From Acetobacteraceae bacterium (GTDB lineage Bacteria; Pseudomonadota; Alphaproteobacteria; Acetobacterales; Acetobacteraceae): a stretch of 64,000 nucleotides of DNA. A program made the position numbers and the translations under genes. The notes beneath the pieces were generated by a model. It was not told the origin of the DNA, ran no database searches, and worked only from the letters and a program-made list of their open reading frames with translations. The DNA is taken from positions 277,923 to 341,922 of the forward strand of contig CBDIBD010000002.1 of assembly GCA_965276655.1 (NCBI GenBank), written 5' to 3'. Below, piece after piece: positions 30,958 through 55,592 of this stretch (positions are counted from its first letter, which is position 1; each line of letters starts with the position of its first letter).

Positions 30958-31101
30958 TAACTTTCGCGCGCGGGTCAAATCCAGTCCAGCCGGATGACGC
31001 GCGCTTCATGGTTTCATCACATTGTCATCTTGCCGGCGGGACACGGTTTAAGGCGAGCACTATACAGCCTGCGTCATCACGATGACGATGGGAACCCACG
31101 C

Positions 31102-33795
31102 ATGAAATGTTCGACCTCACTCAGTCCGATCGGCGGCCTTCTGGCGCTCGGGCTCTCGCTGCCCGCGCTCGCCGCGCCGTCGACCGATTTCCCGACCTAC
31201 ACGGTCGGCCCGCAGAAGAACGGTTCGATCATTGCCTCGAACCTGCAGCGCCTCACGCCGGCCGGCCGCCAGATCGGCCTGGGCTCGCCCGTGCGCGCCA
31301 AGGCGGTGGCATTGAACCCGATCGCGAACAGCCACACCGCCGCCATTCTCGAGATGGGTGCATCCGAGGCGGTGAAGGTCATCGACACCAAGAGCGGCGT
31401 CGTGCTGCAGAGCTTCATCCCGGCGCAGGACAGCAGCGGCTCGTTCACCGGCATCACCTATTCCGCGGACGGCAAGTATCTGTTCTTCAGCCAGGACAGC
31501 TCCTACCTCGAAATCGCCAAGGTCGACGGCAAGGGCCTGCTCAGCGACTATGGCCGCGTCACGCTGCCGCCCGACACCTCGATCCCGCTCTACACGTCGA
31601 GCACGGCGAACCCCGCCGGCGTCGCGGTCTCGGCCGACGGCAAGTCCGCCTACGTCCTGCTCAATCAGAACAACACGCTCGGCGTGGTCGACCTGACCGG
31701 GTCCGCGCCGGTGCTCAAGCAGCAGATCCACGTCGGTAACGATCCGAACAGCATCGTCATCGCGAACGGCTTCGCCTATGTCACCAACACGGGCGGCCGG
31801 GTCGCGGCCTCCGGCGACTTCACCGACCTCTCATCCGGCACGCCGATCGTGGCCAACCCGGCGACCGACGCATCGAGCACCGGCACGGTCTCCGTCATTG
31901 ACCTGGCGACGAACCAGGTGGTGAACACGATCGATGTCGGCCTGCAGCCGACCGGCCTGACGGTGTCGGGCTCGACGCTCTACGTCGTCAACACGAACAG
32001 CGAGAACGTCTCCGTCGTCGACCTCAAGAGCGGCCGCGTCAAGAACACGATCAGCCTCGCGATCCCCTACTACAAGACGTTCGGAACCGAGCCGTCCGGC
32101 ATCGCGACCGACGGAAACTACCTCTTCATCGCCTCCTACACGACCAACTCGATCCTGGTCGTCGATCTGGCCGCGAATTACCTGATCGGCTCGATCCCGA
32201 CCGCATACGGCCCGAGCACCGTCGCCTACGACGCCGCCAACCAGCAGCTCATCGTGACGAACGACAAGGGCACCGGCGCGCAGGGCTCGATCGGCAGCGC
32301 CCACGGCGTGAGCGGCTACAACACCCACCAGGACACCGGCACCGTCAGCCTGATCCATATCCCGACGCTCTCCCAGCTGCTCCAGGACAACGTCCAGGTC
32401 GCCGAGAACAACCACTGGGACCTGTTCAACAACACGCTCGGCACCTTTTCGATCAATCCGGGCGCGAAGCCGGTCGCCGTTCCGGCGCATATCGGCGAGC
32501 CGTCGCTGATCAAGCACGTCTTCCTGTTCATCAAGGAAAACCGCACCTACGACCAGATCCTCGGCGATGTCGCCAAGGGCAACGGCGACAGCTCGCTCGC
32601 GGTGTTCGGCGCGGTGACGCCGAACCAGCACGCGCTGGTCCAGCGTTTCCCGCTGCTCGACAACGTCTACGCGCCGAGCCGCCAGTCCGCGGACGGCCAC
32701 CCCTGGATCGTCTCGTCGATCTCCTCTTACAGCAACGACATCCAGTCGCCCGACTGGGTCCGTTCCTATCCCGGCGGCAACAGCAACGACGTGATGACCT
32801 ACACGCCGCAAGGCTTCCTGTGGCAGACGGTCAAGGCCGCCGGCCACAGCGTGAAGATGTATGGCGAGTGGAGCGACAGCCAGGTCGTCGACGGCAACTA
32901 CAGCTGGTCGGACTGGTACAAAGCGTCGCAGATCATGGAGGGCAAGATCAGCGGCACTTCACCGATCACGCTCACCACCGACACCGAGTCGACCAAGGTT
33001 CCCTCGGCCGAGGCGATCCTCGACCCGCACTACCCGTCCTTCAACACCGGCATTCCCGACCAGTATCGCGTCGACGTCTGGATGCCGCAGTTCATGAACT
33101 ACGAAGCCACCAACACGCTTCCCGACATGGAAATCATCTGGCTGCCCGATGACCACACGTCGGGCTTCACCACCGGCTTCCCGATCCCGACCGCGGCGCA
33201 GGCCGACAACGACCTCGCACTCGGCCGCATGGTCGACGCGATCACCCACAGCAAGGATTGGCCGACCACCGCGATCTTCGTCGAGGAGGACGACGCGCAG
33301 GACGGCGTCGACCATGTCGACGGCCATCGTCAGCCGGTCTACGTGATCAGCCCGTATGCGAAGCAGTTCGCGACCACGGCCGACCACACCTCCTACACCG
33401 CGGAAAACATCAACCGCACCATCGAGAACATCTTCGGCGCGCAACCCTTGACGCAATTCGACCTCGTCGCATCGCCGATGCGCACCGTGTTCACCAACAC
33501 GCCCAACACCGCGCCCTACGACATGGTGCCGGCCACTCTCGACCCCGCCACCTTCCCGACGCCGACGGCGTCGGTGAAAGGCGCCTCCAGCAATGTCCGC
33601 AACGCGTGGCAGCTCGCGTCGGATCATCTCATGGCGGGCCACACCAACCATGCCGACTCGGTCGACGAGAACGTGTTGAACCACGTGATCTGGTATGCGA
33701 GCACCGACTTCAGCCGCCCGTATCCTGGCGAGAAGAAGGTGCTCCCGCCGACTTCGTTCCACCCGCGCGCGGTCACGCCAGAGACCGACGACTGA
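31102..33795 (+). CDS. Secreted bifunctional beta-propeller (YncE/YVTN-like) / PF04185 phosphoesterase (phospholipase C or acid phosphatase family) protein
   Basis: Signal peptide MKCSTSLSPIGGLLALGLSLPALAAP. The N-terminal half has repeated ...YV.N....VSVVDL blades. The C-terminal half carries FIKENRTYDQILGD and EEDDAQDGVDHVDGHR, as in phosphoesterase-family enzymes. Confidence 0.8.
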   Translation: MKCSTSLSPIGGLLALGLSLPALAAPSTDFPTYTVGPQKNGSIIASNLQRLTPAGRQIGLGSPVRAKAVALNPIANSHTAAILEMGASEAVKVIDTKSGVVLQSFIPAQDSSGSFTGITYSADGKYLFFSQDSSYLEIAKVDGKGLLSDYGRVTLPPDTSIPLYTSSTANPAGVAVSADGKSAYVLLNQNNTLGVVDLTGSAPVLKQQIHVGNDPNSIVIANGFAYVTNTGGRVAASGDFTDLSSGTPIVANPATDASSTGTVSVIDLATNQVVNTIDVGLQPTGLTVSGSTLYVVNTNSENVSVVDLKSGRVKNTISLAIPYYKTFGTEPSGIATDGNYLFIASYTTNSILVVDLAANYLIGSIPTAYGPSTVAYDAANQQLIVTNDKGTGAQGSIGSAHGVSGYNTHQDTGTVSLIHIPTLSQLLQDNVQVAENNHWDLFNNTLGTFSINPGAKPVAVPAHIGEPSLIKHVFLFIKENRTYDQILGDVAKGNGDSSLAVFGAVTPNQHALVQRFPLLDNVYAPSRQSADGHPWIVSSISSYSNDIQSPDWVRSYPGGNSNDVMTYTPQGFLWQTVKAAGHSVKMYGEWSDSQVVDGNYSWSDWYKASQIMEGKISGTSPITLTTDTESTKVPSAEAILDPHYPSFNTGIPDQYRVDVWMPQFMNYEATNTLPDMEIIWLPDDHTSGFTTGFPIPTAAQADNDLALGRMVDAITHSKDWPTTAIFVEEDDAQDGVDHVDGHRQPVYVISPYAKQFATTADHTSYTAENINRTIENIFGAQPLTQFDLVASPMRTVFTNTPNTAPYDMVPATLDPATFPTPTASVKGASSNVRNAWQLASDHLMAGHTNHADSVDENVLNHVIWYASTDFSRPYPGEKKVLPPTSFHPRAVTPETDD

Positions 33796-33816
33796 TCAGC
33801 GGCCTCTCACGACAGG

Positions 33817-33854
33817 CGCCCTCTCCGGATCCGCCGGGGAGGGCGTTGCTTTTT
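33817..33854 (+). terminator. Rho-independent terminator
   Basis: 12-bp stem cgccctctccgg / ccggggagggcg (one G-U pair), 5-nt loop, then ttgcttttt. Confidence 0.7.
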
Positions 33855-33880
33855 CGGGCACGCGATGCTTTGAGCGGACG

Positions 33881-35500
33881 ATGAGCGTGCCAGCCCTGCT
33901 CGCGCAAGCCGCCCGGTCGCTTCAGGCCGGACGCGCCGGCGACGCGATCCCGCCGCTGCGCGAAGCGGCCCGGTTGCATCCGAATGACGCGGCCATCCTG
34001 CATGATCTCGGGGTTGCCTGCCTCGAGACCGGCCTGACCCACGAGGCGATCGACCATCTCGACCGCGCCGTGCGCGCCAATCCGCGTTTCGCGAAGGCCT
34101 TCTGGCGGCTCGGCATCGCCTTCGAGGCGATCGGCCAGAACGACACCGCACTCGGCGCCTACGGCCGCGCGACCGCGCTGCTGCCGTCGCTCACCGAGGC
34201 ACGATACCGCGCGGCCAGCCTGCTCGAGACAATGGGCCATCGAGACCGCGCGGCGTCGGAGTTCCAGCGCGCTGCCGCCTCCAGGACGAGCCTCGGCAGG
34301 ATCTGCGGCGTCCGCGCGGCCCTGATCGAGGGCCGCGACGAACAGGCCGAGCGCACGCTTCGCCAGATCCTCGCCTTGACACCGGACAACGCGGCCGCGC
34401 TCGACCTGCTCGGGACGGTGCTCGCGAACGCCGGCCGCCTCGAAGAGGCACGCGACGCATACGCCCGGGCGATCGCGATCGCGCCCGCGCTCGCTGGCAG
34501 CTACTACGACCTGGTGCGATGCCGGCGCCTCGTGCCTGACGACCGGCATCTCGTCACACGCATGCAGGCGGCCCTGACCCGAGGCGATCTCGACACGGAG
34601 CAACGCGCGCGCCTCCATCTCGCACTCGGCAAGGCCGCCGATGATTTCGGCGATCCGGCCCAGGCGATGCGCCATTTCGACGAGGCCGATATGCTGAGGA
34701 GCACCCTGGTCGCCTTCGACGCCGACGCCTTCGAGGCCCGGATCGACCGGATGGTCGCGCGCTTCACGCCGGAACTCCTCGCATCCGCGCACCATCGCTC
34801 CGATGACCCGATGCCGGTGCTGATCGTGGGCCTGCCACGCTCCGGCACGACGCTCGTCGAGCAGATCCTGTCCAGCCACGCCGCGGTCGCGGGCGGCGGC
34901 GAGATGCCATTCTGGACCGAACAGGGTCCACGCTGGGCGGCAGCGGAGGCAAGCCTCCAGGACCTGGCCGCTGATTATCTGCGCGGCTTGCGCACCCTCG
35001 CACCCGCCAGGCGGGTAACCGACAAGATGCCGCTCAACCTGATCTGGGCAGGCCTGATCCATCTCGCCCTGCCGAACGCCACGATCATCCATTGCCGGCG
35101 GGACCCGCTCGACACGGCGCTGTCGATCCATTCGACCTATTTCAACGCGCGCCTGCCATTTCCGACCGGAGGTGCGGCACTGGTCCGCACCGTCCGCGCC
35201 ACCCAACGCCTGGCCGACCATTGGCGACGCGTGCTGCCCTCAGACCGGTTCATCGAGCTCGACTACGAGCGGCTCACCGACGATCCCGGACACCAGATCC
35301 GGCGACTGGTCGCGCAATGCGGCCTCGACTGGGACCCCGCCTGCCTCCATCCGGAGCGCAATGCGCGCATCGTCAAGACACCGAGCAAATGGCAGGTGCG
35401 CCAGCCGATCACACGCAGCGTCGGAAGCTGGCGCCGCTACGAGCCGTGGCTCGGGCCGCTGCGCGCGCTCGGCGTCGCCCCCGCGCAGCCGGCCGCATAG
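33881..35500 (+). CDS. TPR-repeat / sulfotransferase-family protein
   Basis: The N-terminal ~300 aa are TPR-like repeats. The C-terminal domain has the PAPS-loop motif LIVGLPRSGTTLVEQIL and the block TPSKWQVRQPI...W.RYEPWL. Confidence 0.8.
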   Translation: MSVPALLAQAARSLQAGRAGDAIPPLREAARLHPNDAAILHDLGVACLETGLTHEAIDHLDRAVRANPRFAKAFWRLGIAFEAIGQNDTALGAYGRATALLPSLTEARYRAASLLETMGHRDRAASEFQRAAASRTSLGRICGVRAALIEGRDEQAERTLRQILALTPDNAAALDLLGTVLANAGRLEEARDAYARAIAIAPALAGSYYDLVRCRRLVPDDRHLVTRMQAALTRGDLDTEQRARLHLALGKAADDFGDPAQAMRHFDEADMLRSTLVAFDADAFEARIDRMVARFTPELLASAHHRSDDPMPVLIVGLPRSGTTLVEQILSSHAAVAGGGEMPFWTEQGPRWAAAEASLQDLAADYLRGLRTLAPARRVTDKMPLNLIWAGLIHLALPNATIIHCRRDPLDTALSIHSTYFNARLPFPTGGAALVRTVRATQRLADHWRRVLPSDRFIELDYERLTDDPGHQIRRLVAQCGLDWDPACLHPERNARIVKTPSKWQVRQPITRSVGSWRRYEPWLGPLRALGVAPAQPAA

Positions 35501-35519: not shown

Positions 35520-36279
35520 ATGCCGATCGACTGGACCCATGCGGCGCCCTCGATGCTGGCGGCGTTCCTCGCCTCTCTCGTGGAGTTTCATCGAGGCGCT
35601 CACGATCGTGCTCGCCGTCGGCGCGGTGCGCGGCTGGCGCGGCGCGCTCGGTGGCGCGGGCCTCGCTCTCCTGGTCCTGCTGCTCCTTGTCGCCTTCCTC
35701 GGACCGGCGCTCACGCGGATCCCGCTCGACCTGATCCAGCTTGTTCTCGGCGCGCTGCTGCTGCTGTTCGGGATGCGCTGGCTGCGCAAGGCCATCCTGC
35801 GCGCGGCTGGGGTGATCCCGCTCCATGACGAGGACGCGGCCTACGCCCGGCAGACCAGCGCCCTGCGGACCACCGCGCTGGCGGAAGGCTGGGACCGGCT
35901 TGCGATCTCGACGTCCTTCAAGATCACCATGATCGAGGGCATCGAGGTGGTCTTCATCGTCGTCGCACTCGGATCCGCGGGGAAGGGACTGCTTCTGCCT
36001 GCCGGCGTCGGCGCGATCGCCGCCCTCCTCGTGGTCATCGCGCTGGGTGCGGCGCTTCACAAGCCGGTCGCGATGATCCCCGAGAATGCGCTGAAATTCA
36101 TCGTGGGCGTGCTGCTCTGTTCGTTTGGAACCTTCTGGGTCGGCGAGGGCATGGGACTGGCCTGGCCGGCTGGCGACTTGTCGATACCCGCACTGAACGC
36201 CTTCTACCTGGCCGCTTCGCTGTCGGCGGTTCCGATCTGCCGAACGTCCGCCGCGTCCGCCGCGAGGTCGCGCGCATGA
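35520..36279 (+). pseudogene. Polytopic membrane protein (COG4280-like; family from memory) with an apparent 1-nt frameshift
   Basis: Frame A (ATG 35520) reads MPIDWTHAAPSMLAAFLASLVEF. The hydrophobic protein then continues in the +1 frame as IEALTIVLAVGAVRGW... through to 36279. The switch is at the T-run 35586-35588. Confidence 0.55.
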
Positions 36280-36494
36280 GCTGGCTCCGGACCGTCTGGT
36301 CCGAGTTCGTCGGACTGTTCGTCGATGACGGCAGCTTCGCGGTTTCCATCCTGGTCTGGCTTGCGGTGGCCGGATTGGGACTGCCTCGGCTCGCGTTGCC
36401 CCATTCCGTGCCTCCCGTCATCCTGTCTGCCGGCCTCGTCGCGATCCTTGTCGCGAGCGCCGCGCGGCGCTCGCGCGCGAACCGCGATCCGTGA
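36276..36494 (+). CDS. Small membrane protein (72 aa)
   Basis: ATGA overlap with the preceding membrane gene. Two hydrophobic segments. Confidence 0.5.
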   Translation: MSWLRTVWSEFVGLFVDDGSFAVSILVWLAVAGLGLPRLALPHSVPPVILSAGLVAILVASAARRSRANRDP

Positions 36495-36507: not shown

Positions 36508-36650
36508 TTATCGGAGCGATAGCATGAGACCTCCGAATGCCCCGATGACGACGAGGAGCGGAGGCACGCGCCAGACGGCCAACAGCATGAACGCGCCCAG
36601 CGCGAGCGCCGCATCGGCCGGACCGGACACCGCGCCGGTCCAGACCGGAT
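36508..36650 (-). pseudogene. Orphan duplicate of the chrA 3' end (last ~45 codons)
   Basis: Hand alignment of 36544-36650 with 37553-37662 gives about 90% identity with one 3-nt indel. The fragment translates to PVWTGAVSGPADAALALGAFMLLAVWRVPPLLVVIGAFGGLMLSLR*. Nothing upstream of the fragment resembles chrA. Confidence 0.7.
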
Positions 36651-36795
36651 GGCCAAAGGCAGGACTCGACGACACCTACTGCGGCATTTACGGTCGTGGT
36701 GTCGAAGCGCGGTTCGACGATTTTTGCCGATCTGGATCGGCGGAGGTCCTGCTGGTCGAGGCGCCTAAAAGAAGCGCGACGATCGAGGAACAGCA

Positions 36796-37161
36796 ATGGC
36801 GTGGACCTACAGCCAGTCGACTGGAGAGCTGCGCCACAACGGTAAGCTGGTTGCGACTGGCTACTCCGGTATCGGCGTCGGGCAGAACAATTCGGCTTTC
36901 CAGTCGTCTCATGACGTAGGCCCGGTCCCGATGGGCACCTACGCGATCGGTGCTCCCTTCCAGCATCCTCACGCGGGAAGCTACGCCATGCGTCTCACGC
37001 CCATGGCGGGAACGAACACCTTCGGACGGACCGGACTGATGATCCACGGTGACAGCATCACCCATCCGGGTCGTGCATCGACAGGCTGCATCATCGAAAA
37101 CCTGCACGCGCGTCAGCAGGTATGGAATAGCGGCGACCACATAGTAGCAGTAACGCAATGA
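36796..37161 (+). CDS. Tlde1-like (DUF2778) L,D-transpeptidase-fold peptidoglycan-targeting toxin candidate
   Basis: 121 aa, starting MAWTYSQSTGELRHNGKLVATGYSG.G.G.NN, then VGP.P.G.Y.IG, and a C-terminal LMIHGDSITHPGRASTGCII His...Ser/Thr-x-Gly-Cys block. This matches my recollection of tlde1-domain proteins. G+C is lower than the flanks. RBS GAGGAA. Confidence 0.7.
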   Translation: MAWTYSQSTGELRHNGKLVATGYSGIGVGQNNSAFQSSHDVGPVPMGTYAIGAPFQHPHAGSYAMRLTPMAGTNTFGRTGLMIHGDSITHPGRASTGCIIENLHARQQVWNSGDHIVAVTQ

Positions 37162-37496
37162 GTTGGCGCCTCCTCCTGGTGACGCTCGCGCTGCCCTTCG
37201 CCGCCTACGCGCATCCGCCTGCCTGTGCCAGCTGGCCCACGAACATGGCGATGGTCTATCTCAAGAACGCCGGTATCACTGATCCCACGAAGCTCGACGA
37301 GCGCGCCACGAAAGCAACCCTGCTCGCCGCCCAACCAATCGGGAAGGGCGTCTACAAGGAGATCTACGACATTGTCTTCCGCGAGAAGACCGGCAAGCTC
37401 GTGGAGGTCGTCACATCGAACGAGGCATCGGAGGAAGAGTGTTCCTTGACGGCGGTGGACGTCTACGTCGTGTCCCGGAGGCTCGGCGGTCGCTGA
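37158..37496 (+). CDS. Periplasmic immunity-protein candidate (112 aa)
   Basis: ATGA overlap with the toxin candidate. Sec signal peptide MSWRLLLVTLALPFAAYA. No family recognised; the role is inferred from context. Confidence 0.5.
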   Translation: MSWRLLLVTLALPFAAYAHPPACASWPTNMAMVYLKNAGITDPTKLDERATKATLLAAQPIGKGVYKEIYDIVFREKTGKLVEVVTSNEASEEECSLTAVDVYVVSRRLGGR

Positions 37497-37528
37497 GGTC
37501 AAGGAGACCGCATGTGCCGGCGGCTCAT

Positions 37529-38665
37529 TCAAACCATGCCGGCAAGCGCACCGAGGACGACGACGAGGAGCGGAGGCATGCGCCAGAACGTCAGCAGCAT
37601 GAACGCTCCCAGAGCGAGCGCCGCATCGGCCGGACCGGACACCGCACCGGTCCAGACCGGATCATAGAGGGCCCCGGCCAGCAGCCCGACCACCGCGGCG
37701 TTGACGCCGCGCATCGCGGCCTCTGCGGCCGCAAGCGACCGGACGGCGTCCCAGAACGGCAGCACGCCGATCAGCAGCAGAATTCCCGGCAGGAAGATCG
37801 CCACGAGCGCGATCATCGCGCCCGGCAGCCCATGCGTCACCGCGCCGAGATAGGCGGCAAATGTGAACAACGGTCCCGGAACCGCCTGTGCGGCGCCGTA
37901 GCCCGCGAGGAAGGCGCTGTTCGACACCCAGCCCGGCGTCACGACGGCGTCGCGCAGCAGCGGCAGCACCACGTGGCCGCCGCCGAACACGAGCGCGCCC
38001 GACCGGTAGAAGGCGTCGAATTCCGCACCTTCCCAGCCAGCGCCGCGCGCCAGCGGAAGCAGCAGCAATCCGGCGAACAGTGCCAGGCATCCGGTCGCCA
38101 CGAAGCGCGGCACGGTCACCGCAACCGATACAGGCAACCCGTCGGATGGAGCATTCGACCGGCAAAACCCGAGACCGGTGGCCGCACCCAGAACGATCGT
38201 CGCGATCTGTCCGGCCGGCCCGGGCCGCAACAGGACCAGGATCGCCGCGAGTGCGGCGATGCTCGCGCGTGGCCGGTCCGGACACAGCGACCGCGCCATG
38301 CTCCGGACCGCCTCGGCCACGATCGCGACCGCCACGAGCCTGAGCCCGTGCAATGCCCCGTGTCCGGCGATCCAGGGCGCACCATAGGCGAACAGCACCA
38401 GCAGCGCCGCCGATGGCAACGTGAAGCCGGCCCATGCCGCGAGCCCGCCGGCCAAGCCCCCGCGCAGCAGCCCGATCGCGAAACCGGTCTGGCTGGAAGC
38501 CGGCCCCGGCAGGAACTGGCACAGCGCCACGAGGTCCGCAAATTCCCGCTCGCCGAGCCATCGCCGGCGCCCCACGAACTCCGCCCGGAAATAACCGAGA
38601 TGCGCGACCGGCCCCCCGAAGCTGGTCAGGCCGAGCCTCAGAAACGCGACGAACACCTCAGTCAT
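37529..38665 (-). CDS. chrA: Chromate transporter (CHR family)
   Basis: FLRLGLTSFGGPVAHLGY and the second-half repeat ALVFGGGHVVLPLL. The likely start is ATG 38665 (MTEV). The track's TTG at 38674 lies inside a repeat element. Confidence 0.9.
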   Translation of the reverse strand: MTEVFVAFLRLGLTSFGGPVAHLGYFRAEFVGRRRWLGEREFADLVALCQFLPGPASSQTGFAIGLLRGGLAGGLAAWAGFTLPSAALLVLFAYGAPWIAGHGALHGLRLVAVAIVAEAVRSMARSLCPDRPRASIAALAAILVLLRPGPAGQIATIVLGAATGLGFCRSNAPSDGLPVSVAVTVPRFVATGCLALFAGLLLLPLARGAGWEGAEFDAFYRSGALVFGGGHVVLPLLRDAVVTPGWVSNSAFLAGYGAAQAVPGPLFTFAAYLGAVTHGLPGAMIALVAIFLPGILLLIGVLPFWDAVRSLAAAEAAMRGVNAAVVGLLAGALYDPVWTGAVSGPADAALALGAFMLLTFWRMPPLLVVVLGALAGMV

Positions 38666-38722
38666 GGTTTCCAAAGGCGCCTGCCTTTGGCGGGGTTGCA
38701 GGGGCAGCGCCCCTGCGAGGTT
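38666..38722. repeat. GC-rich double-hairpin repeat (family member c)
   Basis: ggtttccaaaggc-gcct-gcctttggcgggg then gcagggg-cagcg-cccctgc. The reverse complement aligns with 55509-55553, including the gcctttggaaaccat junction. Confidence 0.65.
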
Positions 38723-39819: not shown

Positions 39820-41874
39820 TCAGGGCGTCCAGGTGCCGCTGGTGGGAATGCCGGGGGTGGCGCTCGGACGCGGATTGAAGTCGGCCGGCGCCGGATCGAT
39901 GACCGTCCCGTCCGGCTTGAAGTCGGTCGGCGTCACCCCGATCGCCTTGCAGCCGCCCTGTGCCGCGTAGTGAGGCAAGGAATGCACCACGGCCGGATCG
40001 ATCTCGGCGAAGCTCGCCGGGATCGGGGATGAAGCCCCCGTCAGACGGGCGTTGTCGAACGCCGGGAACAGGTCACCGATATCGGGAACCCCGTCATCGG
40101 CCGGCGACAGATAAAGCTGGCCGAGCTTGAAGAAGCCTTCGAGGCGCCCGAGAAGCTCGTCGGGCAGGTCGGCAAGCGGCGCCAGCCCGTACAGCTCGTT
40201 GATGAACTTGATGACCGAGCTGTGCTCCGAATACTGCTTGACGATCACGTGCGAGCTTCCGAACGGGGAGATCACGATCGCCGGAATGCGCGGGCCGCCG
40301 TCGATCGGCTTGCCTTCCGGATCGAGGCTGCGGATCTTGAGCTGCTGGTGATCGTAGAAACCATCGGTCTCGTCGTAGGTGATGATGATCGCGCTCTGGC
40401 TCCAGTAACGGGAGTGCGCGATCGCATTGACCGTGTCGGCGACCGACGCCTCCGAGATCTGCGAGTCGGAGTAGCCGCCGTGGTCGTCGTTGCCCGCGAA
40501 CGAGACGGCGAGCTTGGGGTTCGGATCGACCGGCTTGAGATGATCGAGATTGCCGTAGCCGCCCCTGACGTAATAGACGCCGCCGCTGGCCGCGAGATTG
40601 CCGTTGGCGACGTCGTCGTAGAAATGCCCCTCGCCGAACAGGTGCTTTTGCGCGACCTGCGCATTGTCGGCGACGTAGCCGAAATATTGCGGACCCTCGT
40701 GATGCACGATGTAGTCGTTGTGCGGGTTGGTCGGCGTGGTGTTGCTCGGGTCACCCGGCTCGGTGTCGAAGCCGAGCTGATACCAGGCCCAGTTGGTCGG
40801 CGGCAGGTTCTCGCCGGCGATCGCCGTGATGTCGTTCTGCACATCGGCGAGATCGACCGTGGGGTTCTGGTCGGTGGCCACGACCTGCCTGATCTTGCCG
40901 CCCATGAACGAGAGCGGCAGGCTGGCATAGGTCTGGTTGATCGCCGGTTTGGCCGGGTTCTCGTCGCCGGGATTGTAGGGCGGCTTGATGGCCGATGGAT
41001 CGAGGTTCGAGCCGGCGAACGGACCGGGATCGGCGTAGATCGGCACACCGCTCGCCGCATAGGCTGTGTTGGCCGTGCTGACGTTCGGGTGCAGGGCCCA
41101 CTGGGTCAGGCCCGATTGCCCGGCGATCATCGCGACCGCGTTGGGCGTCGACGGCCCGATCACCGACTGGTGGAAGGCGTCGAACATCGCGAAGCGGTCG
41201 GCGTACTGCCACAGGAACGGAATGGTGTCGCAGTCGATATGGGCCATGTCGAGCTCGGCCATCTGCTTCTGCGCAAGCAACGGCGGGGTCGACGAGGGCA
41301 AGCCGCTCGCGAGCCCGACCACCTGGCCGGCCGCGTTGGTCGTCAGCTTCTCCTCATTGAGCGCGTAGCGGTCGTTCGCCGCGAGGTTCTGCTTGTCGAA
41401 ATGGAGGTCGTTCTCGTAACCCGCCTGCGAGTGATCGACGCTGGCGACGTCAGCCGGGTAGAGCGGCACCGTCTTGCCGTTCACGTCCTTGACCGCCTGC
41501 GGGATCAGGAAAGGCGTGATCGTGGCGGTCTTGTTGTCGGTGCCCTGAATCTTCTGGCTGAAACCGAGCACCTGGGAGGAGGGCTGGTCGAACAGTCCGT
41601 CCGCCTTCGGAAACGTCCCGAAATAATGATCGAACGACCGGTTCTCCTGGAAGATCACGAACACGTACTTGATCTTCTGGCGCAGCAGCGCCTGCTTCAT
41701 CGCGTGCGACAGGACCGGCTCGCTGGCCGGGCTGGTCGCGTATTGCATCGCGGCCGGACTCGAGGGCGCGCCCGGCACCACGTCCGGAGCAGCCGACGCC
41801 AGCGCCGGCTGTGCAACAAGAGACGTGATCGCGATCGTCGCGCACGTCGATTTCCACCACTGCCTGGATGTCAT
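39820..41874 (-). CDS. Secreted phosphoesterase-family protein (PF04185; phospholipase C / acid phosphatase AcpA-like)
   Basis: Signal peptide, then IKYVFVIFQENRSFDHYFGTFP. C-terminal ITYDETDGFYDH. Confidence 0.85.
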   Translation of the reverse strand: MTSRQWWKSTCATIAITSLVAQPALASAAPDVVPGAPSSPAAMQYATSPASEPVLSHAMKQALLRQKIKYVFVIFQENRSFDHYFGTFPKADGLFDQPSSQVLGFSQKIQGTDNKTATITPFLIPQAVKDVNGKTVPLYPADVASVDHSQAGYENDLHFDKQNLAANDRYALNEEKLTTNAAGQVVGLASGLPSSTPPLLAQKQMAELDMAHIDCDTIPFLWQYADRFAMFDAFHQSVIGPSTPNAVAMIAGQSGLTQWALHPNVSTANTAYAASGVPIYADPGPFAGSNLDPSAIKPPYNPGDENPAKPAINQTYASLPLSFMGGKIRQVVATDQNPTVDLADVQNDITAIAGENLPPTNWAWYQLGFDTEPGDPSNTTPTNPHNDYIVHHEGPQYFGYVADNAQVAQKHLFGEGHFYDDVANGNLAASGGVYYVRGGYGNLDHLKPVDPNPKLAVSFAGNDDHGGYSDSQISEASVADTVNAIAHSRYWSQSAIIITYDETDGFYDHQQLKIRSLDPEGKPIDGGPRIPAIVISPFGSSHVIVKQYSEHSSVIKFINELYGLAPLADLPDELLGRLEGFFKLGQLYLSPADDGVPDIGDLFPAFDNARLTGASSPIPASFAEIDPAVVHSLPHYAAQGGCKAIGVTPTDFKPDGTVIDPAPADFNPRPSATPGIPTSGTWTP

Positions 41875-43739: not shown

Positions 43740-43754
43740 CGGCTCAAACCTTCG

Positions 43755-43940
43755 TCCACGACGGTGCCGCCCGCGAGGGCGGTGAAAAGGGAATGCGGTT
43801 CGATGCCGCGGCTGCCCCCGCAACTGTAGGCGAAGAGCGCGCCACCGACACGCCACTGGGTCACCCGTCACGGGCGGTCCCGGGAAGGCCGGGGTGCCGC
43901 CGGACATCACCGGCGCTTCGCGAGCCAGGAGACCTGCCGT
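43755..43940 (+). ncRNA. Cobalamin (AdoCbl) riboswitch
   Basis: Conserved blocks appear in the canonical order: GGTGCC, GGTGAAAAGGGAA, GCTGCCCCCGCAACTGTA, GCCACTGG, GGGAAGGCC and the B12 box AGCCAGGAGACCTGCC (43922-43937). It lies upstream of DUF1636-cobW-cobN. Confidence 0.85.
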
Positions 43941-44042
43941 CCGCGTTGGGACCGAGCGACCGGGCGGGGTGCCCCGGTGCGTGCTCCCGCATCGCCCGCT
44001 GGGTCCGGGGGATGCGGGCGGTCGTGCATCCGCGAGGACCGC

Positions 44043-44384
44043 ATGAGACCCGTTCTGCATGTCTGCATCACCTGCCGGATGGGGCGGGACCTGGAGGACG
44101 AACGGCCGCCGGGCCTCGACCTGCACGACGCGATCGCATCGCGCGCCGGTGGCATCGCCGAGGTGCGCGCGGTCAGATGCCTTGCCGCCTGCAGCCGCGG
44201 CTGCACCGCCGCGATCGAAAGCCCGGGCAAATGGACGACGCTGCTGGGCGGCCTCGCGCCCGCGGTCGCGGACGATCTGATCGACTACGCGTCCGTCTAC
44301 GCCGCGTCGTCGTCGGGTGCGGTGCTGCCGTCGCGGCGCGCCGAGAGCCTCCGCCATGCGATCATCGGACGGTTCCCCGGATGA
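44043..44384 (+). CDS. DUF1636-type Cys-rich metal-binding protein of cob operons
   Basis: MRPVLHVCITCR...RCLAACSRGC cysteine pattern. It is the first gene after the riboswitch, and the cobW ATG overlaps its stop (ATGA). Confidence 0.7.
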   Translation: MRPVLHVCITCRMGRDLEDERPPGLDLHDAIASRAGGIAEVRAVRCLAACSRGCTAAIESPGKWTTLLGGLAPAVADDLIDYASVYAASSSGAVLPSRRAESLRHAIIGRFPG

Positions 44385-45415
44385 CCGCGCGAATTCCAGC
44401 GACCATTGTCAGCGGCTTCCTCGGCGCCGGCAAGACCAGCCTGGTGCGCCATCTGCTGGCCCACGCCGGCGGCCGCCGCCTCGCCATCATCGTCAACGAA
44501 TTCGGCGCGCTGGGCATCGACGGCGCCACGCTGCGCGATTGCGGCATCCCCGGCTGTGACGACGTGGTCGAACTCGCCAACGGCTGCCTCTGCTGCACGG
44601 TGGCCGACGAGTTCCTGCCGGCGATGCTCGCCCTGCTCGACCGGCCGCACCCGCCCGACCACATCGTCATCGAGACGTCGGGCTTGGCCCTTCCCAAGCC
44701 GCTGATCAAGGCGTTCGGCTGGCCCGAGGTGCGCGCCCGGGTGACGGTCGACGGCGTGATCACGGTCGTCGACGCGCCGGCGGTGCTGGCGGGCCGGTTC
44801 GCCGATGACCCCGACGCGGTCGCGGCCGCGCGCGCGGAGGATCCTTCGCTCGACCACGACAACCCGCTCGCCGAGGTGTTCGAGGACCAGCTCGCGGCCG
44901 CCGACCTGGTGGTGCTCAACAAGGCCGACCTGCTGGCCGATCCCGCCTCGCTGTCGCGCGAGCTCGGCGCCAGGCTGCGGCCCGGCGTGCGTGTGATCGA
45001 GGCCGCCTTCGGCCAGGTTCCGCCGGCCGCCCTGCTCGGCATCGGGGCCGCCGCCGAGAACGATCTCGACGGACGGCCGTCCTGCCACGACGCGGAGGAT
45101 CTGGCGCACGAGCACGACGACTTCACGTCCTTCGTGGTCGAGCTGCCGGAGATCGCCGACGCGGACGACCTGCTCGCGCGTCTCGCGCGCGCGATCGAGG
45201 CGCACGACATCCTGCGCGTCAAAGGGTTGGCGGCGGTGCGCGGCAAGCAGCGCTGGCTGGACGTCCAGGGCGTCGGCCCGCGCCTGCGCCGCGAGTTCGG
45301 GCGTCCCATCACCCCGGACGAGACGCGGTCCGGCCATCTGGTGGTGATCGGCCGCGCGTGTCTCGACCAGGCGGCGATCGCCGGCACGATCGCACCGGCG
45401 CCCGAGACGGTCTGA
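44381..45415 (+). CDS. cobW: Cobalamin biosynthesis GTPase/metallochaperone CobW (COG0523)
   Basis: Motifs GFLGAGKTSL, GCLCCTV and a His/Asp-rich stretch (HDAEDLAHEHDD). Confidence 0.9.
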   Translation: MTARIPATIVSGFLGAGKTSLVRHLLAHAGGRRLAIIVNEFGALGIDGATLRDCGIPGCDDVVELANGCLCCTVADEFLPAMLALLDRPHPPDHIVIETSGLALPKPLIKAFGWPEVRARVTVDGVITVVDAPAVLAGRFADDPDAVAAARAEDPSLDHDNPLAEVFEDQLAAADLVVLNKADLLADPASLSRELGARLRPGVRVIEAAFGQVPPAALLGIGAAAENDLDGRPSCHDAEDLAHEHDDFTSFVVELPEIADADDLLARLARAIEAHDILRVKGLAAVRGKQRWLDVQGVGPRLRREFGRPITPDETRSGHLVVIGRACLDQAAIAGTIAPAPETV

Positions 45416-45416
45416 G

Positions 45417-48400
45417 ATGCACCTGCTCGTCAGGGAGCGGACCTCGCTCGACGAGACGAGCCCCGCCGAGGATCTCGGCCTCCCGCCCGCCGACCTGGTG
45501 TTCCTGTCGTTCTCCGACAGCGATCTCGCCTCGGTCGGCCGGGCACCACGCCCGCCGGGATCGAGCGTACTCGCGGTCGCACTCGCCCGCCTGATCCATC
45601 CGATGTCGGTCGACCTGTTCGTCGAGCGCACGCTGCCCGGCTCCGGCGTGGTGGTGGTCCGGCTGCTCGGCGGTCTCGATTACTGGCGCTATGGCGCCGA
45701 GGAGCTGGCCGCCGCCTGCCGGCGTGCCGCGGTCCCGCTCGCGATGGTGGCCGGCGACCGGCGTGACGACGAGCGGCTCGCTTCGCTGTCGACGGTGGAC
45801 GCCGCGGTGCTCGCGCGCCTCGACGCGATGCTGGGCGAGGGCGGCCCGGCGAACGCGGCGCGCGCGGTGCGGCTCGCGCTCGCGATCGGCGGCCGCCTCG
45901 CCGACGACGGCGCGGACGCCGACCCGCTTCCGACCTTCGGCGTCCACGACTTCGGTGTCGCCACGCCATCGCCCTGCGTCGGCCGCGCGGCGATCGTCCT
46001 CTACCGGTCGCACCTCCTGGCCGACGACGTCGCACCTCACGCGGCCCTCGCGCACGCGCTCGCGGCGCGCGGCCTCGAGACCCGCGCTTGGTTCGTCGAC
46101 AGCCCGCGCAACCCGTCGAGCGCCGCGCTGCTTGCCGGCGCATTGCGGAACTACGCACCGCGCGCGGTGCTGAACGCGACCGCTTTCTCGGCCCGCGGGT
46201 CCGCCGGCGCGCCGCTGGAGGCGCCCGGGGTCCCGGTGCTGCAACTGGTGCTGGCCGGCAGCGACCGCGCCGGCTGGGAGGCCTCGAGCCGCGGCCTGTC
46301 GCCGCAGGACCTGGCGATGCAGGTGGTGCTGCCGGAACTCGACGGACGGCTGCTCACCACCGCGATCGGCTGCAAGACCGAACTTCACGGCGTCCGGCGC
46401 AGCGCACCCCTCGACGCGGGCGTCGCACTCGCCGCCGACCGGGCGGCCGGCTGGATTCGCCTGGCCACGACCGTCCCCGCGCGCCGGCGCATCGCGATCG
46501 TGCTGTCGGACTACCCCGGCGCGTCCGGGGCCACGCATGCCGTCGGCCATGCGGTCGGGCTCGACAGCCTCGCGAGCCTGGCCGCGATCCTCGGATGGCT
46601 CCGCCACGCGGAATACGATCTAGGCGACCTGCCCCTGCCGTCGGCCGCCGGCCTGACCAAGGCGCTGCTCGCGTCGCGCCGCCGGCTGGTCCGCTTCGGC
46701 CGCATCGTCGTCGCCGTGCAGCCCGCTCGCGGCGGCGCCTACCACGATCCGGACGCGCCGCCGTCGCGGCCCTACGCCGCCTTCCACCGATGGCTGCGCG
46801 CCAGCGCCGACGCCGTCGTGCATCTCGGCACGCACGGCACGCTCGAATGGCTGCCGGGCAAGGCGGTCGCCCTGTCCGGGACCTGCTGGCCGGTCGCGCT
46901 GCTGCGCGGCTTGCCGGTGATCTACCCGTTCATCGTCAACAACCCCGGCGAGGCGGCGGTCGCCAAACGCCGCCTCGGCGCGGTCACGATCGGGCACCTG
47001 ACGCCGCCGCTGGTCGCGGCCGGATTGTCGGGCGAGGCGCGCGCGGTTGAGCTGCTGATCGACGAGTTCGCCGCCTGCGACGGGATGGACCGGCGCCGCG
47101 CCTCGATGCTGCGCGCCGACATCCTCGAGCGCGCCGCGTCCTCCGGGTTGCTGGCCGAAGCCGGGGCGACCGAGGACGCCACGCTGGACGATGATCGGCT
47201 CGCGACCCTCGACGCTTATCTCTGCGACGTGAAGGAGCTGCGGATCGCGGACGGTCTGCACGTGTTCGGCCGTCCCCCCGCCGGACGCGCCGCCCTGCTC
47301 GACGCGGTCGGCGCCGCCCACGCACCGGCTCTCGACGCCTCCGCCGGCTGCGAACGCGCCGCACTGCTCGCGGCCCTCGACGGCCGGTTCGTCGAACCCG
47401 GACCCGCGGGCGCGCCGAGCCGCGGACGCGCGGACGTGCTGCCGACGGGGCGCAACCTCACCGGCATCGATCCGCGCTCGATCCCGACGCCGAGCGCCGT
47501 GCGGCTCGCCGCGCGGACGGCGGACGCCCTGCTCGCCCGGCATCTGCAGGAGACCGGCGAGCCGCTGCAGCGGCTGGTGCTCGATCTGTGGGGCAGCGCC
47601 AGCCTGCGCACGGGCGGCGAGGATCTGGCGCTGGCGCTGGTGCTGATGGGCGCCGAGCCGGTGTGGGACGAGGCCGGCCGGCTCAGCGCCGTCGAGATCC
47701 TGCCGCCGGCGCTGCTCGACCGGCCGCGCGTCGACGTGACGCTGCGCGTCTCGGGCCTATTCCGCGACGCGTTCGCGGGCCAGATCGCGCTGTTCGACCA
47801 GACGGCACGCAGACTGGCGGGTGCGGCGCGGATCTTCGGCCCGGCCTCGGGATGTTTCGGCGCCGGACATGACTGGCTCGCCGCGTCCGGCTTCGCGTAT
47901 GGCGCGACGGCCGACGGCGTCCCGGCGGCCGGCGCGCTCGCCGCGCTGACCCGGGCCGCCGACGCGTTCGTCCATCAGCAGGACCACCACGAGACCGACC
48001 TCCTCGACGGCCCCGACCACGCGGCGCACGAGGGCGGCTTCGCGCGCGCCGCCGCCTCGCTCGGCAACGCGCCGGCGCTCTACCACATCGACATCGCGGA
48101 CGCGCCGCGCGTGCGGCTTGTCGCCGACGAGATCAAGCGCGTCGTGCGCGGCCGGCTCGCCAACCCGGCCTGGCTCGCCGGCATGCGCCGTCACGGCTAT
48201 CGCGGTGCGTCGGAGATGGCGCGCGGTCTCGAGGCGCTGGCGGATTTTGCGCGCGCGCTGCCCGACCGGTTCGACGCGCAATTCGACCTCGCGGCGGCGG
48301 CGTTGCTCAACGACGAGGAAAATCTCGCCTTCCTGGAGTCCGCCAACGACGAAGCCCTGGCCGCGATCAAGCGCACGCTCGGCGCGATGCGTGACGAGGA

Positions 48401-48446
48401 TCTCTGGCGATCGCGGCGCAACGATGCGGGCGCACTGACCTCATGA
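45417..48446 (+). CDS. cobN: Cobaltochelatase subunit CobN (aerobic pathway)
   Basis: CobN/Mg-chelatase H family blocks: HLGTHGTLEWLPGK, YPFIVNNPGE, NPAWLAGMRRHGYRGASE. At 1009 aa it is short for the family. Confidence 0.9.
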   Translation: MHLLVRERTSLDETSPAEDLGLPPADLVFLSFSDSDLASVGRAPRPPGSSVLAVALARLIHPMSVDLFVERTLPGSGVVVVRLLGGLDYWRYGAEELAAACRRAAVPLAMVAGDRRDDERLASLSTVDAAVLARLDAMLGEGGPANAARAVRLALAIGGRLADDGADADPLPTFGVHDFGVATPSPCVGRAAIVLYRSHLLADDVAPHAALAHALAARGLETRAWFVDSPRNPSSAALLAGALRNYAPRAVLNATAFSARGSAGAPLEAPGVPVLQLVLAGSDRAGWEASSRGLSPQDLAMQVVLPELDGRLLTTAIGCKTELHGVRRSAPLDAGVALAADRAAGWIRLATTVPARRRIAIVLSDYPGASGATHAVGHAVGLDSLASLAAILGWLRHAEYDLGDLPLPSAAGLTKALLASRRRLVRFGRIVVAVQPARGGAYHDPDAPPSRPYAAFHRWLRASADAVVHLGTHGTLEWLPGKAVALSGTCWPVALLRGLPVIYPFIVNNPGEAAVAKRRLGAVTIGHLTPPLVAAGLSGEARAVELLIDEFAACDGMDRRRASMLRADILERAASSGLLAEAGATEDATLDDDRLATLDAYLCDVKELRIADGLHVFGRPPAGRAALLDAVGAAHAPALDASAGCERAALLAALDGRFVEPGPAGAPSRGRADVLPTGRNLTGIDPRSIPTPSAVRLAARTADALLARHLQETGEPLQRLVLDLWGSASLRTGGEDLALALVLMGAEPVWDEAGRLSAVEILPPALLDRPRVDVTLRVSGLFRDAFAGQIALFDQTARRLAGAARIFGPASGCFGAGHDWLAASGFAYGATADGVPAAGALAALTRAADAFVHQQDHHETDLLDGPDHAAHEGGFARAAASLGNAPALYHIDIADAPRVRLVADEIKRVVRGRLANPAWLAGMRRHGYRGASEMARGLEALADFARALPDRFDAQFDLAAAALLNDEENLAFLESANDEALAAIKRTLGAMRDEDLWRSRRNDAGALTS

Positions 48447-49357
48447 CCGTGCGCGGCTGGTGTCCGGGCCTGCACGACCCGATGATGTCCGGCGACGGGC
48501 TGCTCGCGCGGGTCAGACCCAGGTTCGGCCGACTGACGATGGACCAGGCGACCGCGCTCGACGCGCTCTCCAAGTCGTGCGGCAACGGCATCATCGAGAT
48601 CACGTCGCGCGGCAACCTGCAGGTGCGCGGTCTGCATGCGCACGCGCGCTTCGTGGACGGCGTCTGCGACGCCGGCCTCGGCGAGCGCGATCCGGTGCGC
48701 GAGCGAAGGCGAAGCGTGGTGGCGGCGCCGTTCGCCGACGAGGTTCTTGTCGGTTGGCTGGAGCAGGCGCTGATGGAGACCGCGTCACTGGACGGCCTGC
48801 CGCCGAAGTTCACGATCCGCGTCGATGGCGGTCCGGTCTCGATCGCCGACGTGCCGGCCGACGTCGCCGTTTCGCGGGTCGGCGACACGATCCGTGTGTC
48901 ACGCGCGGCGCGGACGCGCGCCCCGCTCACCGGACCGATCGGCCGCGTGCCGGGCATGGACGCGGTCGCGATCGCGCCGAAGTTCGGCCAGTTCGGCGAG
49001 GGGCAACTCGCGGCACTGGCCAGGCGAGCAGGCAGGGACTTGCGGATCACCCCGTTCCGCTCGGTGATCGTGCAGGGAGCAGCGGACGGTTTCGCCGACG
49101 GCCTCGGCCTGATCACGGTTGCGGACGATCCGCGCCTGCGCATCGTCGCCTGTGTGGGCGCCCCCCGGTGCAAGTCCGGATTGGGACCGGCCCGCGACGT
49201 CGCGGAGCAGTATTTGTCGATGTTGCCCGCGTCGGGCGTCCTGCACATCAGCGGCTGCGAGAAGCGCTGTGCTTTCCAGGGAAATGCCCAGCTTATAATC
49301 CCGGGGTCTGGGGCCGCCGGCCCCAGCGGGGTCGAGGGGAGGAGCCCCTCGCCTTGA
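48443..49357 (+). CDS. cobG: Precorrin-3B synthase CobG (short form, 304 aa)
   Basis: MTVRGWCPGLHDPMMSGDGLL start and a sulfite/nitrite-reductase-like Cys cluster (CVGAPRCKSG...HISGCEKRCA). The last ~20 codons run through a repeat element. Confidence 0.8.
   Translation: MTVRGWCPGLHDPMMSGDGLLARVRPRFGRLTMDQATALDALSKSCGNGIIEITSRGNLQVRGLHAHARFVDGVCDAGLGERDPVRERRRSVVAAPFADEVLVGWLEQALMETASLDGLPPKFTIRVDGGPVSIADVPADVAVSRVGDTIRVSRAARTRAPLTGPIGRVPGMDAVAIAPKFGQFGEGQLAALARRAGRDLRITPFRSVIVQGAADGFADGLGLITVADDPRLRIVACVGAPRCKSGLGPARDVAEQYLSMLPASGVLHISGCEKRCAFQGNAQLIIPGSGAAGPSGVEGRSPSP
49296..49351. repeat. GC-rich hairpin repeat (family member d) inside the cobG 3' end
   Basis: ataatcccGGGGTCTGGGGCC-gcc-GGCCCCAG then cgagggg-aggag-cccctcg. 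Same unit as 55561-55592. Confidence 0.6.
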
Positions 49358-55495: not shown

Positions 55496-55508
55496 CGCAC
55501 CACCATAC

Positions 55509-55592
55509 CAGGGTTCCGCCCTGGACCCGCCAAAGGCTAGCCTTTGGAAACCATCAATAAGATCATTGGGGTCTGGGGCCCGTCGGCCCCAG
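55509..55592. repeat. Composite GC-rich triple-hairpin repeat (family member e)
   Basis: ccaggg-ttcc-gccctgg / ACCCGCC / aaaggc-ta-gcctttgg / aaaccatc...GGGGTCTGGGGCC-cgtc-GGCCCCAG. It combines the modules seen at 38666 and 49296. Confidence 0.65.

Follow-up and report, generated by a model that had tools for sequence, protein, structure and literature searches.

Two small overlapping genes, a putative toxin gene and its partner, are found in a 64-kb stretch of the genome of an Acetobacteraceae bacterium (contig CBDIBD010000002.1; the whole stretch of 64,000 nucleotides (nt) is referred to below as the window), where they lie between an intact chrA gene, which encodes a chromate efflux transporter, and an orphan fragment that repeats the 3' end of chrA (Table 1). 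The first gene encodes a compact protein of the superfamily of Tlde1, a periplasm-acting L,D-carboxypeptidase/transpeptidase (PMC9638812; bioRxiv 10.1101/2020.02.18.954545), and the second encodes an exported protein that is its probable immunity partner. The original prediction, made from the letters of this stretch, had recognized both the pair and the duplication and had viewed the arrangement as an insertion that reconstituted the 3' end of the target gene. The toxin-immunity part of that view has held up well in the analysis presented here, and the manner of entry appears to have been a different and older one.

Table 1. Features of the toxin-immunity locus, in window coordinates.
Feature	Coordinates	Strand	Description
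Displaced (orphan) chrA 3' end	36508..36650	-	Last 143 nt, including the stop codon; contains repeat copy 36544-36650
Non-coding toxin leader	36651..36795	+	145 nt; 60% G+C
Toxin open reading frame (ORF)	36796..37161	+	121 amino acids (aa); Tlde1 domain (DUF2778, YkuD-like); no signal peptide; predicted catalytic His84 and Cys98
Immunity ORF	37158..37496	+	112 aa; Sec signal peptide; overlaps toxin ORF by ATGA
Spacer	37497..37528		32 nt; separates the immunity gene and chrA, whose stop codons face each other
Intact chrA	37529..38674	-	381-aa chromate efflux transporter; convergent with the toxin-immunity pair

The identity of the intact chrA gene is clear from its matches to TIGR00937 (E 8e-96) and PF02417 (E 1e-76), and the orphan falls within a mechanically called ORF (36508-36675) that extends 25 nt past the end of the chrA homology. 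Ahead of the toxin gene a GAGGAA sequence (36785-36790) is placed 5 nt 5' of the ATG. At 36700-36719 (+), past the chrA remnant and before the toxin gene, there is a hairpin that resembles a terminator, with ATTTTTG after it; the count of such hairpins is no different from chance (1 found, 0.7 expected). The base composition of this part of the window is distinctive, as had been estimated by hand counts in the original prediction: the G+C content is 0.60-0.62 over positions 36700-37500 (60-63% for the pair), whereas the flanks have 0.68-0.73 and the window as a whole 0.693, and the G+C content at third codon positions (GC3) is 0.70 in the toxin gene versus about 0.85 in the adjacent genes. The pair is also lower in G+C than its host locus in three other genomes. 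A foreign origin of the toxin-immunity pair is supported by this base composition.

The 121-aa protein is a member of the Tlde1/DUF2778 superfamily with a Tlde1a-like fold. The motif block HGDSITHPGRASTGCII, on which the first assignment had been based, is present in the ORF, and residues 21-107 match the Pfam family PF10908 (Tlde1_dom) with E 7e-10 and a score of 39.8 bits, the curated cut-off being 30.1; neither this protein nor its partner is matched by an NCBIfam model. An AlphaFold (AF2) model built on an alignment of homologues has a mean pLDDT, the program's own confidence score, of 93.7, and when compared with the PDB by Foldseek its sole real match, the remainder being noise, was 7uo8_A, the Salmonella Tlde1a (probability 1.00, TM-score of 0.70 on the query). 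Moreover, the profile of the subfamily aligns its H...SxGC residues with the H..SHGC of the YkuD-family structure 4lpq, so that both the family match and the YkuD-like fold that had been anticipated were recovered. Since a pairwise phmmer search of the toxin against PDB sequences gave nothing at E <= 10, the toxin is tied to Tlde1a and YkuD only through fold and profile searches.

An exact-sequence look-up of the 121-aa protein found no identical entry; a nearly identical homologue (P0001) led to a metagenome contig that is discussed below. Altogether 97 homologues were collected, most of them 118-125 aa long, and PF10908 is found in all those listed. Among 63 aligned homologues the residues G10, Y23, G25, G42, P45, G47, R78, H84, S95, C98, and R106 are invariant, and the active-site block of the subfamily can be written HGDx(6-9)ASxGCI. 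The corresponding sequence in the window toxin is A-S95-T96-G-C98-I-I, with 14 residues from His84 to Cys98, and it departs from the full motif HXX14-17-(S/T)HGCh in that the second His is replaced by Thr96; across the 63 homologues this position is occupied by T, N, E, Q, K, H, L, or F. In Tlde1a the catalytic His and Cys are H121 and C131 and the second His of (S/T)HGC is H129, which, according to the discussion in that work, influences certain activities more than others (PMC9638812).

The compact domain is by no means rare, as a HMMER scan of 1.84 billion representative proteins returned 2246 proteins at E <= 1e-10. In some long proteins it forms the extreme C-terminus after RHS repeats (profile E < 1e-35), and a C-terminal toxin domain behind RHS repeats is the classic layout of polymorphic toxins. 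Some representatives of 258-262 aa (P0139 and P0142) contain two compact Tlde1 domains in tandem, and one homologue (P0093) was deposited under the name of a bdelloid rotifer, Rotaria sp. Silwood2, an entry that points to contamination or to horizontal transfer.

The 112-aa partner begins with MSWRLLLVTLALPFAAYA, followed by HP, and its signal peptide is predicted to be cleaved after AYA18. A Sec-signal ORF is thus coupled to the toxin gene, as originally described, and an N-terminal hydrophobic leader is present in all 37 aligned homologues of the partner. The family comprises 41 homologues, most of them 111-130 aa and all unannotated, with many from Burkholderia, Paraburkholderia, and Dyella, and its invariant residues are C23, W26, K36, N37, G39, T51, G79, S91, E94, C95, and V100. 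Two of these are cysteines (C23 and C95) and would fit a disulfide bond formed in the periplasm. The protein belongs to no Pfam or NCBIfam family; an AF0941-like Pfam match was set aside, as it scored 17 bits and was under its own cut-off. The AF2 model (pLDDT 87.6) consists of one helix packed on a four-stranded sheet, and a fold search of the PDB with this model gave no significant match, the only hits being weak ones to VirB8/NTF2-like folds at E > 0.1. Given its predicted export to the toxin's site of action and its coupling to the toxin gene, the 112-aa protein is probably the cognate immunity protein and would act by neutralizing the toxin there.

The combination of toxin and partner recurs elsewhere. 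The toxin-immunity pair co-occurs in four genomes, and in Paraburkholderia diazotrophica, Dyella sp. M7H15-1, and Burkholderia ubonensis a toxin is followed by a 112-113-aa partner with the identical 4-nt ATGA overlap, both proteins being 56-60% identical to those of the window. The settings are diverse: a stray chromosomal site in P. diazotrophica; a stretch with integrases, ParB, and an antirestriction gene (an integrase island) in B. ubonensis; and, in Dyella (CP035300.1), a cluster for a type VI secretion system (T6SS), in which the pair directly follows hcp. The gene order there is tssB, tssC, tssK, dotU, an OmpA-domain gene, hcp, toxin, immunity, an NlpC/P60 and DUF3828 pair, and clpV, and the Dyella proteins share 59% (toxin) and 58% (immunity) identity with those of the window. 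No other evidence speaks as strongly as this hcp linkage for the pair being a cargo effector-immunity module of a T6SS, and it is because an orthologous pair follows hcp in Dyella that the effector-immunity reading holds; it adds to the domain, the fold, the conserved His and Cys, and the Sec-signal partner on which the toxin-immunity interpretation otherwise rests. Loading into Hcp has been proposed as the principal secretion route of the Tlde1 family (bioRxiv 10.1101/2020.02.18.954545).

A Pfam sweep of 45 further ORFs of the window listed housekeeping families, such as those of cobalamin synthesis, DAHP synthase, cytochrome oxidase, and ABC transport, and among the families listed, the top 25 of each batch, there was none belonging to T6SSs, integrases, transposases, or phages, in agreement with the earlier statement that neither a T6SS gene nor an integrase occurs in the 64 kb. 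Such an orphan location is ordinary for the Tlde1 superfamily, as 23-57% of genomes with DUF2778 members, depending on the family, have none near a T6SS structural gene (bioRxiv 10.1101/2020.02.18.954545).

One could also envisage that the pair is not an interbacterial weapon in this organism, and that it represents either a phage remnant or moron with a lysin role, or a relic in a lineage lacking a T6SS, where the immunity protein would defend against the Tlde1-type effectors of neighbours. Full-length homologues of the toxin are encoded in 58 phage records (37-50% identity), including those of lytic jumbo phages of Erwinia and Dickeya and of a 4360-nt Citromicrobium microvirus; PHROG 24118, of unknown function, is matched at E 3e-35; fold matches in BFVD are to domains of phage tail lysozymes and tape-measure proteins; and two of the metagenomic contexts are phage-like. 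A disrupted toxin in one close relative, and possibly in a second, combined with purifying selection on the immunity gene (see below), would likewise suit a relic. Yet the sweep listed no phage genes in the window, the exact combination of this toxin with a 112-aa partner is the one found beside hcp in Dyella, and the toxin ORF of the window is full length with all of the invariant residues. Moreover, a phage-like contig pairs its toxin with a lipoprotein partner, which points to an effector-immunity pair and not to a holin/spanin set. We consider this alternative very improbable for the window, and at the same time it is probable that the compact Tlde1 domain acts as a lysin in phages.

With regard to these phage homologues, examples are found at MG214764.1 (L175, 1328-1738) and KY984068.1 (L094, 5004-5369), and in the Citromicrobium microvirus, a six-gene single-stranded DNA phage, the homologue is gpB, annotated as hypothetical. 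Other compact Tlde1 genes are accompanied by a second, unrelated partner family of 160-188-aa lipoproteins or Sec-leader proteins with a shared PGTDAG...E.L motif (L083, 10357-10839; L087, 8376-8942; L091, 8354-8860), and in one case the pair is found together with genes for RecT and RadC on a phage-like contig. A lysis-cassette interpretation of the phage-like contig L091 was rejected, as the gene downstream encodes neither a spanin nor a holin but a lipoprotein with homology to the L083 and L086/87 partners.

How the pair came to lie beside chrA can be approached through the duplicated chrA sequence. The earlier claim that the two segments align at the nucleotide level is borne out by a direct repeat of 107 nt, 92% identical (BLAST E 1e-39), which has only two copies in the window; the second copy (37556-37662) is near the 3' end of the intact gene, and the spacing of 1012 nt between the copies equals the length of the insert, which holds the two ORFs. 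The orphan is also recognizable in a tblastn search with ChrA residues 338-381 (77% identity, E 3e-13), and at the protein level the homology runs to the stop codon in both copies, while at its other end it stops sharply at 36650/36651, the boundary between the orphan and the toxin leader. Downstream of the repeat the two copies part company: the intact gene has a different, slightly shorter C-terminal tail (37529-37555), and the last 35 nt or so of the two copies look, in a count by eye, near-unrelated at the nucleotide level. The functional chrA ends in ...VVVLGALAGMV and the orphan in ...VVIGAFGGLMLSLR, each followed by its stop codon, the short form of the orphan-type tail being ...IGAFGGLMLSLR. 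As the tails diverge and both encode typical ChrA C-termini, two different chrA alleles appear to have met here. A search with the 48-aa orphan peptide for a chrA gene with an orphan-type tail yielded no candidates.

The same arrangement is found in two related sequences, namely a metagenome contig (L001) with 99% nucleotide identity to the window locus, and the complete chromosome of a sister species, an Acetobacteraceae metagenome-assembled genome (L003, OZ255622.1), with 91-94% nucleotide identity and a 37-nt insertion in the spacer between the immunity gene and chrA. Being common to all three, the arrangement predates the split of these lineages. No T6SS linkage was seen at either locus, with pieces of 13-15 kb available for the relatives and the sister-species locus judged from its tblastn synteny to the window. 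The orphan of the sister species has retained more of chrA than that of the window, for a piece in the same strand and gene order, 87% identical to chrA nt ~572-617 (E 2e-10), abuts a piece that corresponds to nt 1077-1146, the two matches overlapping by 6 nt. The colinearity of the pieces indicates that a longer chrA copy lost about 459 bp from its interior, and it follows that the displaced copy was once at least about 575 bp long and that the 143 nt in the window are what remained after later deletions. A recent templated patch was considered as the source of the additional piece and was rejected, as the piece is only 87% identical to the sister species' own chrA and is colinear with the tail.

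Within this lineage the toxin and its partner have had different fates. The toxin of the sister species is a pseudogene (about 7550-7860) that has lost its first two thirds and carries a 4-nt deletion in the remainder, and in the metagenome contig a 2-nt deletion near the 3' end of the toxin gene (about 8290) shortens the product to 110 aa; all three genomes carry an intact immunity gene. The ratio of nonsynonymous to synonymous substitution rates (dN/dS) between the window and the sister species is 0.33 for the immunity gene, 0.28 for a neighbouring gene encoding a 72-aa protein, and 0.23 for chrA, the values for the neighbouring OFeT permease gene and a 335-aa gene being excluded owing to indels in the codon alignment. 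With a dN/dS close to those of the 72-aa gene and chrA, the immunity gene seems to have remained under selection after loss of the toxin.

The most direct record of the event would be an empty site, in which the 72-aa gene adjoins chrA without the pair. Comparison of related strains, as originally suggested, did not supply one: no such site was found outside the lineage among 80 chrA loci of GTDB genomes and 77 OFeT loci of metagenomes, and no relative in these two sets has a full second chrA.

These observations invite the suggestion that tandem chrA paralogs, arising by duplication or from a second, acquired allele, were present first, and that the pair landed independently between them, whereupon the copy beside the 72-aa gene eroded to 143 nt. 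The sister species' orphan, with its mid-gene piece joined to the tail through a 6-nt match overlap as an internal deletion in a longer copy would leave it, speaks for such a history, as do the fact that both tails are genuine ChrA C-termini and the fact that the arrangement is ancestral to two species. Decay of a paralog had indeed been named at the outset as what a shared arrangement with a full second chrA would imply; the shared arrangement was found, and the longer remnant leans in that direction, and the complete second gene was not seen in any relative of the two sets of loci. Furthermore, the remnant adjoins the toxin leader at a sharp boundary, and the duplicated hcp end in Dyella, described next, is accounted for more economically if the module and the 3' end of its anchor gene arrive together. 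The paralog history, which we hold to be rather unlikely, differs in its long-remnant form from the explanation favoured below only in whether the second chrA was ever complete.

In the T6SS cluster of Dyella, copies of an independent direct repeat, 42 nt in length and 93% identical (CP035300.1, 9472-9513 and 10520-10561), stand on either side of the pair. One copy constitutes the last 14 codons of hcp, and the other lies about 180 nt past the immunity gene, ahead of the NlpC/P60 and DUF3828 pair, the spacing being 1048 nt compared with 1012 nt in the window. The copy of the hcp 3' end looks like the footprint of an effector-module displacement. Taken together, the repeats in Dyella and in the window fit homology-facilitated illegitimate recombination in which a neighbouring gene served as the anchor, a process that has been proposed by Kirchberger et al. 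(2017) for the sequential displacement of effector-immunity modules (PMC5361080).

The geometry of the locus also recalls a site-specific element, either a cassette of about 1 kb or the stump of a larger island, that used an attachment (att) site in the 3' end of chrA, with the 107-nt repeats as attL and attR. Elements integrated in the 3' ends of genes are arranged in this manner, with one repeat followed by an element-supplied tail and the other placed between non-homologous DNA on one side and the native tail and flank on the other; the direct repeats of the target's 3' end exist, at 107 nt and 92% identity, and the insert has a foreign G+C content. A dedicated att site is nevertheless argued against by the fact that the repeated gene is host-specific, hcp in one case and chrA in the other, that seven other contexts (L002, L083, L086, L090, L096, L176, and L178) have no flanking repeat, Dyella alone among the other contexts having one, and that flanking sequences are not shared: chrA is absent from the vicinity of the other copies of the pair, which share no flanks, the toxin leader of the window resembles none of those ahead of the pair in five other genomes, and a comparison across six genomes revealed neither conserved ends of a cassette nor inverted repeats or common non-coding flanks of the pair. 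Nor were an integrase or transposase among the families listed for the 64 kb, or an empty site among the 80 chrA and 77 OFeT loci, and a mid-chrA piece such as that of the sister species is unexpected for an att site. An element of this kind is decidedly unlikely. The proposed insertion that rebuilt the 3' end of chrA thus keeps the support of the foreign composition and the duplication, and a neat cassette is not well supported in view of the age of the arrangement, the longer colinear chrA piece in the sister species, the lack of an integrase or cassette ends, and the divergent tails.

The explanation that we favour, with a probability of about 0.6, is that the pair is an acquired Tlde1-type effector-immunity module, carried as Hcp/T6SS cargo where it is used, that entered by chrA-anchored recombination and whose toxin is eroding in relatives. 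The toxin would be a minimal YkuD-like L,D-peptidase. With Cys98 and His84 as its catalytic residues it would, within the periplasm, either cleave the terminal D-Ala from the tetrapeptide stems of peptidoglycan or exchange it, and would thereby leave the cell wall weaker. The 112-aa protein would be exported by the Sec pathway, would probably form a disulfide, and would block the toxin in the periplasm of the producer or of a sibling. The toxin, devoid of a signal peptide, would most likely be loaded in Hcp and fired by a T6SS encoded elsewhere. As to the entry, the chrA gene may have been the homologous anchor for homology-facilitated illegitimate recombination, in the form of a 3'-end or C-terminal displacement: the incoming DNA would have consisted of a chrA 3' portion together with the pair, one crossover would have taken place in the resident chrA, and the other end would have been joined illegitimately inside the resident chrA. 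The displaced resident 3' fragment would thereby have been left beside the 72-aa gene, at least about 575 bp long at first and since deleted down to 143 bp. Such an event would be older than the split of the sister species, with the toxin side decaying thereafter and the immunity gene being kept. The locus bears the signature of a displacement of this type, that is, a 3' fragment of the anchor gene beyond DNA of foreign composition, with a core that is 92% identical and tails of different alleles.

Several points weigh against this explanation. Delivery by a T6SS in this organism is unproven, given that no T6SS gene (hcp, vgrG, PAAR, or core) was among the families listed within 64 kb, and the phage homologues from lytic jumbo phages and a 4.4-kb microvirus show that the compact Tlde1 domain is not exclusive to T6SSs. 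The exact chemistry of the toxin may differ from that of Tlde1a, because the second His is Thr96 and this non-canonical position is variable in the subfamily. The toxin frameshift in the metagenome contig may be an assembly error, coverage there being about 5x. The anchor model requires a donor that already had the pair beside chrA, and none was found among the 80 chrA loci outside the lineage, the 77 OFeT loci, or the two closest toxin homologues, whose genes, on contigs of 2-4.6 kb, adjoin DUF2939 or citrate synthase; also, no donor-derived tract is obvious along chrA from G+C and GC3. Finally, the sharp drop from 92% identity to near-unrelated sequence in the chrA 3' end could also reflect a later gene conversion.

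In a broader view, a compact Tlde1-like domain of about 120 aa that lacks the canonical second His would be a peptidoglycan-cutting module indifferent to its means of delivery and would move freely between T6SS pairs, Rhs toxins, morons of temperate phages, and the lysis functions of lytic phages, the six-gene microvirus among them. The present lineage, possibly without a T6SS, would then maintain a defensive immunity gene beside a decaying toxin gene, the module having spread by recombination in a housekeeping gene, chrA, and not in genes for secretion systems. As a whole this view is unlikely; if true, it would mean that effector-immunity modules can colonize genomes through any conserved anchor.

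Current views are not overturned by this locus, which may be seen as an ordinary by-product of how toxin pairs spread, recombination at an anchor gene being an already known route for effector-immunity modules. It adds to the Tlde1 effector superfamily a well-supported member whose catalytic domain is minimal, at 121 aa, and whose active-site motif is a variant one, and it draws attention to an immunity family that recurs in Burkholderia, Paraburkholderia, Dyella, and the Acetobacteraceae and for which there is no Pfam or NCBIfam model. If the favoured mechanism is correct, the locus is also a clean natural example of the entry of an effector-immunity module with a non-secretion gene as anchor, the displaced 3' end of the anchor having been left behind. 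Its value lies in annotation, by naming the immunity family and flagging the compact Tlde1 domains of phages, and in its being a small case study of toxin-module turnover.

The surroundings of the locus contain several further features. The 72-aa gene belongs to a conserved two-gene unit (35530-36494, +), in which it overlaps an OFeT_1-like permease gene and which recurs, with 43-76% identity, in over 50 loci from metagenomes; the 72-aa protein (p72) itself has no family. Two large genes of the Phosphoesterase family (phospholipase C/acid phosphatase-like) occur on either side of the locus (30994-33795, +, and 39820-41874, -), and a TPR-sulfotransferase gene is located at 33695-35500. Further along, a cobalamin riboswitch (RF00174, 106 bits) at 43745-43955 (+) precedes a cobalamin biosynthesis cluster (genes from about 44000 to 57700) with CobN, CbiD, CbiJ, three tetrapyrrole methylases, and a CobQ-like gene.

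Among known systems a close counterpart is Tlde1a/Tldi1a of the SPI-6 island of Salmonella Typhimurium, first named Tae5/Tai5; the PF10908 domain, formerly DUF2778, is now called Tlde1_dom. The window toxin resembles Tlde1a in its above-threshold PF10908 match, in its His...Cys arrangement, and in that Tlde1a is its sole real fold match in the PDB; both are small single-domain toxins without a signal peptide that are encoded next to an immunity gene with a Sec signal, and an orthologous pair is hcp-linked in Dyella. The differences are nevertheless considerable. At 121 aa the window toxin is shorter than Tlde1a (173 aa), the 52 extra residues of which may, we presume, include the capping subdomain of Tlde1a. 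The identity in the Foldseek alignment is 19% and there is no pairwise phmmer similarity; the second His of (S/T)HGC is Thr in the window toxin and variable in its subfamily; and the window toxin has a single cysteine, whereas conserved disulfide bonds are marked for Tlde1a (PMC9638812). The immunity protein, a member of an unannotated family, has no match to DUF2195 (Tldi1), and its gene is downstream and not upstream of the toxin gene, with no T6SS genes nearby. Tlde1a acts by L,D-carboxypeptidase activity and D-amino-acid exchange on tetrapeptide stems and is toxic only in the periplasm (PMC9638812).

With YkuD-type L,D-transpeptidases and carboxypeptidases (PF03734; PDB 4lpq, LdtMt2, and Csd6) the toxin shares the catalytic H...(S/T)xGC core, as seen in the profile alignment to 4lpq, and some of its homologues score on PF03734 as well. 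It differs from them in its shorter His-Cys spacing, in having neither a signal peptide nor a peptidoglycan-binding domain, and in toxin-type genetics in place of a housekeeping role. In its position the pair is comparable to orphan T6SS effector-immunity pairs and orphan immunity genes, which are situated away from T6SS structural genes, the sister species having kept immunity alone.

The arrangement of the locus is reminiscent of effector-immunity displacement in Vibrio cholerae (Kirchberger et al. 2017, PMC5361080), where a foreign module lies beside a conserved anchor with a displaced 3' fragment of the resident gene beyond it, where no dedicated recombinase or specific site is involved, and where the immunity gene is kept after loss of the effector. 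The present case departs from that of V. cholerae in that its anchor encodes a chromate transporter with no relation to secretion and lies in convergent orientation to the pair, away from any T6SS cluster, and in that there is one module and not an array. The displacement of C-termini at rhs loci is likewise analogous to the homology-facilitated illegitimate recombination proposed here.

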